Shown here in pieces: positions 4,110 through 8,475 of a stretch of DNA of 10,983 bases (position 1 is its first letter; each line of letters starts with the position of its first letter). The translations under genes and the position numbers were made by a program. This stretch comes from Oligoflexia bacterium. GTDB lineage: Bacteria > Bdellovibrionota > UBA1018. The notes below the pieces were generated by a model that was given only the letters and a program-made list of their open reading frames with translations, did no database searches and was not told where the DNA came from. Location: NCBI GenBank assembly GCA_043732485.1, contig JAYTHP010000172.1:1-10983 (forward strand). The letters are read 5' to 3'.

Positions 4110-7028
4110 GTGCGACTGTTTATGAATTTGGGACATTGTGGTCGATCTTTTGTGGGACTTTCACGCTTGTGGGTTCGGATGACAAGCCTACTGCTTCGGT
4201 TTTTGGGTACGCTAAGTTTGCCGGTAGGGTCCCTGGTGGGGGTGATTATGATAGGCCTGATGGGCGGGCGGCAGGCGTTTGCCAGCCAGAATCATAGTTA
4301 TTTCTTTGCCAATGGTAATCGCATTTTGCTGTCGCAAGACGTTGAGAAGGATCGCTATCAAATTGAGTGGTTTGCAGCGGGTGAGGCGGGTGAGGCGGGT
4401 GAGGGTAAGGTTTTATTGGAGGGGAAGGGTTTTCAAGAGCTGAAGGCCAAGAGCTGGCCTACCCCTTACTTGCAGGTGCGTGATGGCAGTCGCAAGTGGA
4501 TTTCCCAAGACGGCGAAGTGTTTCAGTCTTGTGCCCAGGCAAAAAAGTTGCGCGAGGTGCATCAGCAGTGGTTGGTGTTATCGCCGTTGGGGGAAAAGTC
4601 TGGAGAACAGTGGCTCGTGGAAACGGTGTTTTTTCGCGGGCATTACCAGACCTTTCTCCAAGAGCACTCGAGTGGGGATTGCTATAGGATGTCCAGTCAC
4701 ATGATGGCTCGTGAAAACCGCAAAGAGCAGGAAAAGACCGCTTTTCAAGTCACGCTCTTGGAGCAAAACGGTCACGTCTGGGTCTTACAAAAGGGCACGC
4801 AGTTTGCTTTTGATCTGACCCATCAGCGCCCTTTGCGCTTGATTGAGCATCAGGGGGTGTTGTACTCGCTCGATTGGTCGCATCAGGCGGAGTTAGGGGG
4901 TGAGGTAGTGGTCATGCGGCTTGCGGATCAGCAAAAGGTGCGGCTTTTTTACCCAGTGCAGGAGAATCACTCTGAGAATCCGCTGGAGCTGGAATCTGAG
5001 TCGGAAGAGGAGTCGCCGCGGCCACCCCTGCGCAAGCGTAAGCGGGGTTTGATTGAGCAGCTTTTAGTCGGTTCGGAGGCAGAGGAAAGTGACTCCGAGT
5101 GGAGTGCTCAGCCGGCGATGGAAGTCGAGTCAGGTTTGCTGACGATCAGAAACAGTCCACGCAAGATTGATTTGGATCGTTTTGATGAAGAAGTGCGCAT
5201 GGGAGAGCAGTTATCGCGCAATTTAAGATCCCTGAATAACCGCGGAGATTCCTTGGATCCGATGGCTTATCTCAGGACCCATTTTCAGGAATTGGTATCT
5301 GCGGCCAGGCAGTCGCCTGAGCACTTCCCGGAGGATGCCTTAGAGACCGTGATCTTACCGATGAAGCGAGCCTTGCGGCATCGCCAAAGTGTGATTCTGC
5401 TGGGTCCTGCGGGCTCAGGCAAATCCAGTGCTATTCGAGCGTTAGCCAGAGAAATTGCCCGGGGGGCTTATAAGGATCTGCCACGCAGTTTGCAGATTTT
5501 TGAGCTCACTGCAGCCACCTTACAAGAGGAGTCCAAGTTTGTTGGGACGATTGAAGGCAGGATGAACCTGATCTTGAAGGCTGCACAGGAAAACGGCGTG
5601 ATCTATTTCATGGATGAATTTCATAACCTGGCAGGCGCAGGCACCCACTCTAACCGTGCGAACGATTTAACTCAAGACCTCAAGGTAGCGTTAGAGCGCA
5701 AGCAGATCGTGCTGGTGGGTGCTGATACCAAAGAGGAGTTTCGGGCGGCTTATGGCTGGGACGGGGCGTTTATGCAGCGCTTTCAGGAAGTGAAGATGGT
5801 GCCGCTTGCCGGTCAACCGCTGCTCAAGTTGCTGGCTGAGAAGTTTCAAAAGGATACCTCAGTCACCCTCTCGCCTGCCATCCTGGAGCAAGCGGTGCGG
5901 CTGTCGGAGCAGTATGATCTGGAAACTGCGCAGCCCCGGGCAGCAGTCAATTTACTGAAAGAAGCCCTTCGGCAGGTCGAAGAGCGCGGCGGGGTGCTTA
6001 GGCTGTCGTCAGACGAGTTGCAACGTGCGGCCTTGAGTCGTTATAGTTTGGATCCGCATCAGTTTGATTTAAGCTTTCAAAAGCAGCGACTCAAAAATCT
6101 GCAAGAGGATCTTAAAAAGGAAGTGGTGGGGCAAGAGCACGCGAAAAAAGCCTTGCTGCAACTCTGGGGACGGCAAGTGAGTCAGGCCGTCGATCCTGCG
6201 GCGATTAAGACCTTGCTGTTAGTCGGACCGCCTGGAGTGGGTAAGTCCATGCTCGCTGAGTTCTCAGCGAAACGGATGGGGTATGCCTCAACCCTGATTG
6301 CCATGAATGCCTTAGGTTCGTACTCAGGGGTGGAGCAGTTTAAAAAGGAGATTGTCCAGGCCCTAGTGAAAAACCGCTTGCAGGTCTTTATCTTGGATGA
6401 GATCGAAAAAGCTCCCTTGAGCGTACAAAACGTCATTTTACAGCTCCTTGAAAAGGGCACGCTGACTTTTGAAGAGCAGTTTTCAAGCAGACGCAGCAAG
6501 ATCCGGACGATCAATTGTCGCAACTCCTTTTTCATTTTTACCTCCAACGGTGCGCAGGGCTATTTGGAGGAAAGAAAAGACCAGCGCGACTTTGAAAAGT
6601 ATCCGCTGGATCAGTTTCGGTTGCGCAGGATCTTGCGTGAGCCTGATCATCATGGCCGGATGATCTCCACGGAGCTCTTGGCAAGGATCCAAGAAATCCT
6701 CCCTGTGATGCGTCCGTCGCGTGAGGAATACAAGCGAGCGGTGGAGTTTTATCTGACGCGTCTTTTAACGGAAGCAAGCCAGCGGCTGCGGATCACCGTC
6801 AGTCTCACCAACGCCCCGGAGTTCATTGAAGCCGCTATCGCAGGTGATCTTTCGGAGATGGGTTACCGCGAGGCCCAGCAAACCACGCGGCTGATTGAAA
6901 ACACCCTGGCGCAGGCCTATTTGGAGCAACTGCCTGAGCCAGGCTCACACCTCGCCATTCGCTGGAATCCTCAAGAGGCTGATCAGTTTGTGAAAAAAGT
7001 GCCGGAGTTTTTAGGGATGTACCAGTAG
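4110..7028 (+). CDS. Atypical Clp/Hsp100 class I (ClpA/ClpB-like) double AAA+ ATPase with signal-peptide-like N-terminus and unrecognised N-domain
   Basis: D1: Walker A GPAGSGKS (5403-5426), Walker B IYFMDE (5601-5618), LKVALERKQIVLVGADT and DGAFMQRFQ (ClpB LKPALARGEL..GATT and DAALERRFQ). D2: VVGQEHA, Walker A GPPGVGKS (6225-6248), Walker B VFILDEIEKA (from 6384), ILQLLEKGTLT, IFTSN, ELLARI. ATG 4122 with GGGGAG at 4105-4110 is a plausible alternative start. Confidence 0.9.
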   Translation: MRLFMNLGHCGRSFVGLSRLWVRMTSLLLRFLGTLSLPVGSLVGVIMIGLMGGRQAFASQNHSYFFANGNRILLSQDVEKDRYQIEWFAAGEAGEAGEGKVLLEGKGFQELKAKSWPTPYLQVRDGSRKWISQDGEVFQSCAQAKKLREVHQQWLVLSPLGEKSGEQWLVETVFFRGHYQTFLQEHSSGDCYRMSSHMMARENRKEQEKTAFQVTLLEQNGHVWVLQKGTQFAFDLTHQRPLRLIEHQGVLYSLDWSHQAELGGEVVVMRLADQQKVRLFYPVQENHSENPLELESESEEESPRPPLRKRKRGLIEQLLVGSEAEESDSEWSAQPAMEVESGLLTIRNSPRKIDLDRFDEEVRMGEQLSRNLRSLNNRGDSLDPMAYLRTHFQELVSAARQSPEHFPEDALETVILPMKRALRHRQSVILLGPAGSGKSSAIRALAREIARGAYKDLPRSLQIFELTAATLQEESKFVGTIEGRMNLILKAAQENGVIYFMDEFHNLAGAGTHSNRANDLTQDLKVALERKQIVLVGADTKEEFRAAYGWDGAFMQRFQEVKMVPLAGQPLLKLLAEKFQKDTSVTLSPAILEQAVRLSEQYDLETAQPRAAVNLLKEALRQVEERGGVLRLSSDELQRAALSRYSLDPHQFDLSFQKQRLKNLQEDLKKEVVGQEHAKKALLQLWGRQVSQAVDPAAIKTLLLVGPPGVGKSMLAEFSAKRMGYASTLIAMNALGSYSGVEQFKKEIVQALVKNRLQVFILDEIEKAPLSVQNVILQLLEKGTLTFEEQFSSRRSKIRTINCRNSFFIFTSNGAQGYLEERKDQRDFEKYPLDQFRLRRILREPDHHGRMISTELLARIQEILPVMRPSREEYKRAVEFYLTRLLTEASQRLRITVSLTNAPEFIEAAIAGDLSEMGYREAQQTTRLIENTLAQAYLEQLPEPGSHLAIRWNPQEADQFVKKVPEFLGMYQ
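4377..4403 (+). repeat. 9-bp tandem repeat (GCGGGTGAG)x3 encoding AGE x3
   Basis: Three perfect in-frame copies in the ATPase N-domain. Confidence 0.9.
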
Positions 7029-7058
7029 ACGGCGGGAGAGGGCGGGCGCAGCCAAAAG

Positions 7059-7076
7059 AGCAGCAGCAGCAGCAGC
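7059..7076 (+). repeat. (AGC)6 intergenic microsatellite
   Basis: AGCAGCAGCAGCAGCAGC about 30 nt after the ATPase stop codon. Confidence 0.85.
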
Positions 7077-7366
7077 GGGAGTGCGCAAGTGAGCGGCGGG
7101 AGTTTTGTCGGAGCAGGAATGCTTGTATGGTGGGCAACCGTTAAAAGTACCCAGTGTTTGAGGGTGACCACCGACACACCGCGCCGCTTAAAAGGTCGTT
7201 GAGGCCCCAGGGAAGCAGTGAGGGGGGCTCTTAAGCTTCTAATTCAGTTGCGTCCCGGCAGTCTTACCAGGGTGTCTTCTCTTAAAGCACGCATCCCCAA
7301 TGATCTGCAAAAAGTTGCGTTTCTCTGCGATGACCGCAATGCGACAACTATCCTGATACAGGGGGG

Positions 7367-7798
7367 GCACGGGCAAACCTTGAACTCGATCTGATGCTCG
7401 GTCACCTGCATCGCTATCCTTAGAAGGTCAAAAACCTGAACGATATGAGTCTTGTCAGACTTTACCGTCTTTAAGCTCGAGCCGCATGCACATTCAGAAA
7501 CACTATGCTGAAGGAGCTGGTCTGGCTTCGCCACTTTTTTTAGTTTAGTAACACGATGACCGGTCTATCCACCCGGCTTTTTTCCGGTCTTTTTGCGCTG
7601 ACTGCTAGGGATGACGGGTTGGTTTGCTAAGCCGTCACTTGAAGGGAGCTTCGAGCTATTGGTGCTGTTTCTCCCCTTTTTTCAAGAAGGCCACGAATCA
7701 TAACTTCAAGATTACGAACCTGTCCTCAAGCTTGCGAATATGCTCTTTCACTTCGTTCGGTAGATCCTCAAAGAGGTTCTCTTAAGCAAGGTAGGCAT
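7367..7798 (-). pseudogene. IS66-family transposase N-terminal remnant (frameshifted, internal stop, 3'-truncated)
   Basis: The minus frame reads NSTNSSKLPSSD (7669-7634)...SQRKKTGKKPGG*TGH...HSVSECACGSSL...QVFDLLRIAMQVTEHQIEFKVCPC. This matches the IS66 NSxNSSxPPSSD / KPGGQxGH motifs and zinc ribbon. TAG at 7567-7565 replaces the conserved Gln. Coiled-coil-like pieces upstream lie in shifted frames. No DDE core is seen. Confidence 0.88.
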
Positions 7799-8040
7799 TT
7801 CAACAGAGCTTATCAATGATGGCTAGCATCAATCAGATGAGAAAAACAAAAAAGGACGTTTCTGCGCTCAATCTAAATATTTATTTGCCCTCTTTCTAGC
7901 TGGATCAGTGGGATTTGGGCTGGTTCGAACAAATAACTTATGGGCGCCTCGTAAGCAGAAGATTCATGTCATGTTGACGCCATCCGTGTCTGTTCGTGAA
8001 AAATTAAACCCACTCTGCAGAAAATGCGGTGAACAGTCAC
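7367..8040 (-). mobile_element. Decayed IS66-family insertion sequence (left end plus partial transposase)
   Basis: Transposase remnant plus a candidate left inverted repeat GTGACTGTTCACCG (minus strand, 8040-8027) resembling GTAACTGTTCA-type ends. No matching right end found. Confidence 0.65.
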
Positions 8041-8103
8041 ATGAAAACTCAAAGAGACCAGGGAGTCCAAGTGCCGTCTTGAAGTCGGGCCCAACGTTAT
8101 AAT

Positions 8104-8475
8104 TTACTGCGTCGCAGAGGGGCTGGCAGGCGGCAGCGGCGTTGCGCTAGTAGACCCCTGATTCGCAGGCACCGGGCTCCCGGAAAGCGTTTCCGATGGC
8201 GCGCTGCTGGGTGTTGCAATCGGCGTGCCCTCAAAAACGCTCTTTCCTGCTTGCCCGGACAAGACGGTCAGGCCAATCGAGGTCAACATGAAAACAGCAG
8301 CCGAGCCTGAGGTCATGCGGGTTAAGAAATTAGCCCCGCCTGAGGTCCCAAAGATCGTTTGGCTGGATCCACCCAGCGTGGTGCTGATCTCGGCGCCTTT
8401 GCCGGATTGCAGTAACACCAAGAGGATGAGGAAAAAGCAGGTCACAATGTGAACGATTGTCAGTAGGGTTTGCAT
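8104..8475 (-). CDS. secG: Preprotein translocase subunit SecG
   Basis: TM1 ending LVLLQSGKGA, Gly-rich loop LGGSSQTIFGTSGGANFLTRMT, TM2, then a Pro/Ser/Thr-rich tail. This is the classic SecG signature. Confidence 0.96.
   Translation of the reverse strand: MQTLLTIVHIVTCFFLILLVLLQSGKGAEISTTLGGSSQTIFGTSGGANFLTRMTSGSAAVFMLTSIGLTVLSGQAGKSVFEGTPIATPSSAPSETLSGSPVPANQGSTSATPLPPASPSATQ

Follow-up and report, generated by a model that had tools for sequence, protein, structure and literature searches.

The window analysed here is the whole 10,983-nucleotide contig JAYTHP010000172.1 of the Oligoflexia bacterium assembly GCA_043732485.1 (phylum Bdellovibrionota). Its gene at positions 4110–7028 (+ strand, as for every feature of the gene given below) encodes an exported-looking, ClpA-like double AAA+ ATPase that ends in a hydrophobic-Tyr-X (HbYX) motif. 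The comparisons set out below show this end to be a conserved, selected motif on an apparently undescribed, putatively exported motor. The protein has 972 residues from the GTG at 4110; the start may instead be the ATG at 4122 or at 4179. Pfam models AAA and AAA_2 match its two AAA+ domains, and the top NCBIfam model is ClpA (TIGR02639), whose score of 149 bits lies below the equivalog cut-off of 993. The same genome (2.58 Mb, 89% complete) encodes separate ClpA, ClpB, ClpX and ClpP genes. Positions 4110–7400 are covered without any difference by one contig of a sequencing run that is possibly this DNA's own source; in three glacier-metagenome runs the gene was covered in fragments, with the tail region uncovered.

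Architecture of the ATPase

The first 58 residues (4110–4283) resemble a Sec signal peptide, with a basic n-region, a hydrophobic core (hydropathy peak of 2.5) and A-F-A ahead of the conserved FxNG with which the mature domain begins. Cleavage at A-F-A and export of the ATPase are predicted from the hydropathy, the A-x-A pattern and the alignments. A hydropathy peak of at least 2.0 at the N-terminus is found in 99 of 127 full-length family members and in none of nine outgroup rows. In place of the Clp N-domain, residues 59–285 (4284–4964) form an all-beta domain of repeated blade-like meanders in the predicted model, with a predicted local distance difference test (pLDDT) score of 75.5. Fold searches, which barely covered the model beyond residue ∼150, gave partial propeller-blade matches (template-modelling score of ∼0.2, best Z of 8.2 over 76 residues) and no clear structural counterpart; the domain has no Pfam match and the ESM Atlas returned no usable match. 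It is presumed to bind a substrate or an adaptor. The next segment (4965–5105, residues 286–332, pLDDT <50) is a disordered acidic/basic insert unique to this protein; it contains RKRKR (5031–5045), which we take to be similar to a nuclear localization signal (NLS). Basic NLS-like clusters (KRQRR, KRKRR and KKRK) also occur in the tail spacers of relatives (L034, L037, P0123 and P0124).

Aligned to the ClpA and ClpB of its own genome, the first ring (D1; 5331–5984) is intact, with Walker A at G432–S439, a K-F-V-G pore loop (476–479), Walker B at D502/E503, sensor-1 T540 and the arginine finger R557. The second ring (D2; 6072–6959) retains Walker A at G706–S713, Walker B at D763/E764, sensor-1 N813, R859 and R920, while its GYVG pore loop (12 residues) is deleted in the alignment. 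The deletion is family-wide: the loop is present in none of the 146 family rows, compared with eight of 11 outgroup rows. In ClpA, docking on ClpP is mediated by an IGL/IGF loop that lies between the D2 sensor-1 and the arginine finger; the segment that aligns with this position (6546–6686) lacks the motif. A conserved Trp (W952) and a spacer that is flexible in the predicted model (6963–7016) lead to the end of the protein.

Like ClpA and ClpC (class 1 Hsp100), the ATPase has two ClpAB-clade rings and no ClpB middle domain; its D1 pore loop, Walker motifs and arginine fingers can be aligned with theirs, and the nearest solved structures are those of ClpB, ClpC and ClpA. ClpA, however, has a Clp N-domain, an IGL loop and a D2 GYVG loop, all of which are missing here, whereas the ATPase has a signal-peptide-like N-terminus, a beta-blade N-domain and an HbYX-type end. 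According to the available text of PMC11475706, an AAA+ ring with a flexible Hb-Tyr-X tail is a feature of PAN, Rpt2/3/5, Cdc48/VAT/p97 and Mpa/ARC, and it is shared by the ATPase. The CDC48 and pup_AAA models match it weakly (E values of 2e-6 and 5e-7), far under the cut-off and behind the Clp models. The proteasomal ATPases are classical-clade AAA proteins that serve the 20S of their own cell, whereas this ATPase is of the Clp clade and exported-looking, and no 20S was found in its family. The protein is neither ClpA nor an orthologue of PAN, Cdc48 or Mpa, although it may work like the latter.

The C-terminal tail and its conservation

The open reading frame (ORF) ends with the codons GAG TTT TTA GGG ATG TAC CAG TAG (7005–7028), i.e. 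E-F-L-G-M-Y-Q-stop, with M-Y-Q at 7017–7025 as the HbYX motif in both the sequence and the alignment of relatives; an earlier note on this DNA had read the same final residues. It had also placed them on a short tail beyond the D2 small domain, and the full-length predicted model agrees: the final structured element is a beta-strand at 947–950, and residues 963–972 (pLDDT <50) are predicted to be a free, disordered tail. The note's caution that three residues can arise by chance was well placed. This genome has 1953 closed, non-shadow ORFs, of which 30 (1.5%) end in Y-X and 12 in Hb-Y-X, the latter rate being close to the 0.72% that ProEnd gives for bacteria (PMC11475706, in its available part); [SG]-M-Y-X ends are found in only two. 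One lone Hb-Y-X tail could therefore arise by chance, and conservation of the penultimate Tyr among homologues had been set beforehand as the decisive check.

The motif passed this check. A search of 75 family genomes gave eight matches in seven genomes that stood far above the others (E ≤ 4e-224, 29–39% identity); all eight have an Hb-[Y/F]-X end (FLGMYQ, WMSMYN, WQSMYN, LNSMYI, YYNYFN, YYNYYN, HLSYYQ and YDHLYT), and three weaker matches have no such end. When 127 genomes of the class were searched, no genome beyond the seven proved to carry this group. The wider family, collected by a profile search of 1.84 billion representatives (146 rows, within P0122–P0269), consists of double-ring AAA+ ATPases of Bdellovibrionota that derive from ClpA and bear signal-peptide-like N-termini. 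In a first tree of 157 rows (three of 160 were dropped beforehand) the query falls within a branch of 31 rows that has 99% local support. Position −2 is Tyr in 11 and Phe in two rows of this branch; outside it, Tyr is found in none and Phe in six of 115 rows. A quick IQ-TREE tree of 40 rows, from which P0138 (which ends inside D2) was left out, groups all 13 tails within a single clade of 21 rows (96% in the Shimodaira–Hasegawa-like approximate likelihood-ratio test), 13 of whose 21 members thus keep the aromatic residue. The closest core identity to the query is 39%. The distance from the last Trp to the end is 17–21 residues in ten of the 13 tail-bearing proteins; a later Trp was picked up in two of the remaining three, and one has no Trp. 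As the tail is conserved among the orthologues, it is not a chance occurrence, and the aromatic residue fixed at −2 and the near-constant spacer behind a diverged core show that it is under selection.

Nothing but generic Clp proteins came from a search of metagenome contigs and from another protein search that used the clade alignment, and the gene neighbourhoods of the eight orthologues have nothing in common across genera and no recurring protease partner. Two side observations concern relatives: P0133 has K-M-Y-C followed by a ten-residue extension, as though the stop codon had been lost and a tail had become internal, and two family paralogues in genome G005 (L021:3447–6104 and 10603–13269) have ankyrin repeats as the N-domain and are without IGF, Cys motif or Tyr tail.

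Outside the branch, 47 of 113 rows carry the internal IGF loop, as do six of 30 rows inside it and none of the 13 tail-bearing proteins (three of the 146 rows, with missing anchors, were dropped from this count). Of the 66 outside rows that have no internal loop, 14 hold an IGF-like motif in the tail instead, which makes the C-terminus of this family a site where protease-docking motifs appear. Since the chassis of the wider family often carries either the IGF loop or a C-terminal IGF, the tail clade would have swapped ClpP for the 20S. R-I-G-F-like ends are frequent in members that lack the internal loop (P0211, P0254, P0207, P0233, P0256, P0216 and others), as if the ClpP-docking motif had been relocated to the tail. 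Loss of IGF as a unique mark of the tail clade was considered and rejected, as many outside rows are also loop-less. A Cys within the last 45 residues is found in 106 of 115 rows outside the branch; these ends are often C-x-x-L-F-like and may be a sorting signal. The Cys-x-x-x-Phe ends of leucine-rich repeat (LRR) proteins in this genome, which are perhaps LRR caps, were not counted as this motif.

Tail chemistry, viral tails and the putative host

The tails were compared with published peptide preferences. In the available text of PMC8907193, the human 20S accepts Tyr or Phe at P2 (the penultimate position), prefers Ser at P4 and tolerates Gly or Pro there; Tyr at P3 is required in free peptides, a requirement that multivalent display lifts, and the optimised peptide ends in NLSYYT. 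In the 13 tails, P2 is Tyr in 11 and Phe in two (both preceded by Tyr at P3), P3 is Met in six, Tyr in four, Leu in two and Asn in one, and P4 is Ser, Gly or Pro in ten. HLSYYQ, the end of one relative, is the same as the optimised peptide at four of six positions. The tail of p97 is acidic; 12 of the 13 tails have no acidic residue at P4–P6, and the net tail charge ranges from −1 to +5. By sequence, the tails fit the preferences of the human 20S better than they fit the acidic p97 tail.

A near-identical tail also occurs in viruses. A DNA pattern for P-P-x-G-M-Y-x-stop, taken in part from one relative's tail, was used in a targeted search, so that the counts do not represent a genome-wide enrichment: it matched at least 119 viral stretches, compared with 20 for a control with Tyr and Met swapped. 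GVMAG-named contigs account for 26 of 80 among the matches listed and for one of 20 in the control. Among the matches listed, 64 end frames of at least 150 codons, 60 of which have a Walker A motif; the flanks of 39 viral loci were too short to qualify for this count. All 14 viral frames scanned are single-ring AAA ATPases, three with a Lon lid and one with a BCS1-type lid, and their likeness to the query is that of AAA proteins in general (best E of 1e-5). One bacterial clade member ends in PPFGMYQ. These matches suggest that unrelated giant-virus AAA+ ATPases have converged on the tail. The viral proteins, protease-less Lon-type and other single-ring ATPases, resemble the present one in having this end and no attached protease; they differ in having a single ring and an only generic relationship to it, and their binding to the 20S is likewise a prediction. 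The literature search returned no paper that joins HbYX with a giant virus.

The earlier note had proposed looking for the genome's own prcA/prcB, and no 20S or HslV was found: PF00227, which covers both, matched in none of the 75 family genomes (of which this one is 89% complete) and in ten of 14 controls, and PF10584 matched in none of five genomes. The tail-bearing genomes are rich in repeat families. At least 11 Ank_2 matches are found in seven of seven tail-bearing genomes (11–69 per genome) and in eight of 68 other family genomes (median of 2.5), LRR_6 in four of seven and four of 68, and F-box-like matches in five of seven and six of 68. F-boxes work through eukaryotic Skp1–Cullin–F-box (SCF) ligases. 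The richness in ankyrin, LRR and F-box-like matches points to a eukaryotic host, most likely a protist, for the tail-bearing bacteria. This genome has 24 ORFs with at least three LRR motifs, many with a signal-peptide-like start; a scan of 16 hand-picked ORFs gave three weak F-box-like matches, all under the curated cut-off. Signal-peptide-like F-box-like and LRR proteins are expanded on its contigs C233, C141, C96, C90, C40, C19, C242 and C114, and they are a candidate effector repertoire against eukaryotic SCF ligases. Bacterial F-box and U-box effectors are likewise aimed at host proteolysis; they act by ubiquitin ligation or inhibition, and none was found, in the sources as far as available, to be an ATP-driven 20S cap. 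A U-box search gave no match anywhere, controls included, and the T2SSK matches were weak, with the same model matching in ten of 14 controls. Large LRR or ankyrin expansions were also seen in G021, G024, G028, G073 and G094, in which no tail-clade member was found; G024 has 1067 LRR_6 candidates in 1.9 Mb.

Elsewhere in the window, a 554-residue ORF (1224–2888, +) begins much like a signal peptide, is rich in Cys in its middle part and has a hydrophobic segment towards its end; neither Pfam nor NCBIfam matched it, and none of the compared loci has a counterpart. A 37 bp repeat (7329–7365), also found on at least ten other contigs of the genome, lies beside a 680 bp element (7367–8047) with three 82–88% copies elsewhere in the genome; together they are probably an insertion-sequence remnant. 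The tpiA gene (78–1079, +) has an apparent long Ser-rich insert near its N-terminus. The usual neighbour of secG is tpiA; here, secG (8104–8475, −) follows fusA on the opposite strand and is not beside tpiA.

Proposed role and alternatives

With somewhat more confidence than doubt, we favour the reading that the ATPase is an exported, ClpA-derived hexameric motor that docks on the 20S of a eukaryotic host through six Hb-[Y/F]-X tails. This reading draws on the signal-peptide-like N-terminus, the intact ATPase motifs, the free and conserved tail, the missing IGF loop, the genome in which no 20S or HslV was found, and its repertoire of eukaryote-type repeat and F-box-like proteins. The ATPase would be exported through Sec and then delivered into an ATP-containing compartment of the host, where it would form a hexamer; its six tails would insert into the pockets of the alpha ring and either open the 20S gate or occupy it. 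The beta-blade N-domain may select the substrates, and D1, the sole ring with a pore-loop aromatic residue, may unfold them and feed them by way of D2 into the 20S, with no part for ubiquitin. This productive cap is a version that we propose tentatively; a second version, a dock that does nothing but open or block the gate, we regard as unlikely.

Several observations weigh against docking on a host 20S. Within the tail itself, P3 is Asn in one of the 13 proteins and Met in the query; the monovalent Y-Phi rule (Tyr at P3, Tyr or Phe at P2) describes four of the 13 tails and not that of the query. Only 22–25% of human and Thermoplasma HbYX proteins are seen as proteasome interactors in the accessible part of PMC11475706. 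On the tree, eight of 21 clade members have no penultimate Tyr or Phe (e.g. NPLVI, NPLVF and HPMVS), and the presence and absence of the tail requires seven changes of state, so that there may have been a single gain with several losses. Neither an internal nor a tail IGF is present in 52 of 113 outside rows and the loss of the loop is therefore not clade-specific. The family-wide absence of the D2 pore loop weakens the model of two-ring threading and leaves room for a motor that does not feed the 20S and instead gates or blocks it. As regards the host, most F-box-like matches are under the Pfam cut-off, two of the seven tail-bearing genomes have no F-box-like match and three no LRR_6, several LRR-rich relatives have no tail-clade ATPase, and the compared genomes are related and hence not independent, which makes Fisher tests on these counts descriptive only. 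Against an intracellular life, no true ATP/ADP translocase was found in the tail-bearing genomes (TLC matches occur in six of 75 genomes, are short and C-terminal only, and are absent from the tail-bearing ones), flagellins are kept in five of five genomes, and no type VI secretion system or VirB4 was found in the same number, so that neither system accounts for delivery to the host.

The alternative that survives best, although it is hardly likely, is that the tail is bound by another C-terminus reader of the host (a TPR or PDZ scaffold, a C-degron ligase or a trafficking factor) that sets the location or lifetime of a motor which remodels host complexes in the manner of NSF. A D2 without a pore loop would suit such a role, as would the Pro-hydrophobic character that the NPLVI, NPLVF and HPMVS ends keep without Tyr and the basic NLS-like spacers of many tails. 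The exact register of Tyr or Phe at P2 and the small residue at P4 agree with the 20S peptide data, however, and the convergence of the viral ATPases and the IGF-like docking motifs at the same tail position of this family also speak against it.

The earlier note had offered, beside a host 20S, a mimic of p97, and of these two the former is partly supported while the latter fits less well, as 12 of the 13 tails are without acidic residues at P4–P6. The note had overlooked three points that bear on the mechanism: the N-terminus is signal-peptide-like, the ClpP-docking loop is gone, and the D2 pore loop is deleted throughout the family. As a p97/Cdc48 mimic, the Met-Tyr tail would recruit host PUB/PUL cofactors (PNGase, Ufd3/PLAA and UBXD1) to a bacterial segregase with the two-ring layout of p97, and it has the hydrophobic residue and penultimate Tyr that are central to PUB/PUL binding in the available text of PMC5389986. 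The same text describes an electrostatic contribution and a positive ridge on PUL; Phe at P2 in two members is a further point against what we consider an improbable reading.

Scarcely more can be said for an intrabacterial signal (for export, maturation or recognition by a periplasmic protease) that replaced the C-terminal Cys motif of the family, a reading to which we give little credence. The tail does occupy the place of the Cys-containing end of the outside rows, one clade member carries both Cys and SMYL, and the N-terminus is signal-peptide-like; the same tail is, however, used by viruses, in which such a pathway does not exist. Nor is it an export tag of general use, given that [SG]-M-Y-X is confined to the two ORFs counted above and is absent from the many exported-looking LRR and ankyrin proteins.

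It is very improbable that the tail docks on the 20S of archaeal or actinobacterial prey. HbYX docking is common to archaeal PAN and, as a variant, to actinobacterial Mpa (PMC11475706, available text), and known members of the phylum prey on prokaryotes (PMC11656739, likewise in part), but the F-box-like, LRR and ankyrin expansions indicate a eukaryote and the Tyr-Phe ends obey the human-20S rule. Least credible of all is a neutral, inherited end without a binding role, which the tail-less clade members and the background of Y-X ends in the genome would allow, but which sits badly with an aromatic residue exactly at −2 and a near-constant spacer in a disordered tail behind cores of at most 39% identity, and with the absence of Tyr from all 115 outside rows.

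Titles and abstract starts in the open-access literature showed no exported Clp ATPase in this phylum and no bacterial or giant-virus HbYX cap, although the ProEnd database could hold such proteins. The terms AAA, Clp and signal peptide did not turn up in a search of the available part of PMC11656739, and the reduced sponge-associated Bdellovibrionota metagenome-assembled genomes reported in PMC9944714 do not, in the text available, extend to this ATPase family.

HbYX motors, as far as known, act on the proteasome of their own cell, and the docking of Clp motors on ClpP relies on another loop. Docking of the ATPase on a host 20S, if true, would be a new, ubiquitin-free form of bacterial control of host proteolysis, exerted by a Clp-clade motor on a foreign 20S; it would also be a natural example of an AAA+ motor changing the protease it works with, and would be evidence for life on eukaryotes in some Bdellovibrionota. 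Tentatively, a lineage of this phylum may have exchanged bacterial prey for eukaryotic hosts and converted an exported ClpA-like unfoldase from docking on ClpP (IGF) to docking on the proteasome (HbYX), as an ATP-driven, ubiquitin-independent cap that chooses which host proteins are degraded, with giant viruses having reached the same solution with Lon-type motors. Even without the link to the 20S, the 146 representatives constitute a large family of ATPases with signal-peptide-like N-termini that would need to reach an ATP-containing compartment of another cell.

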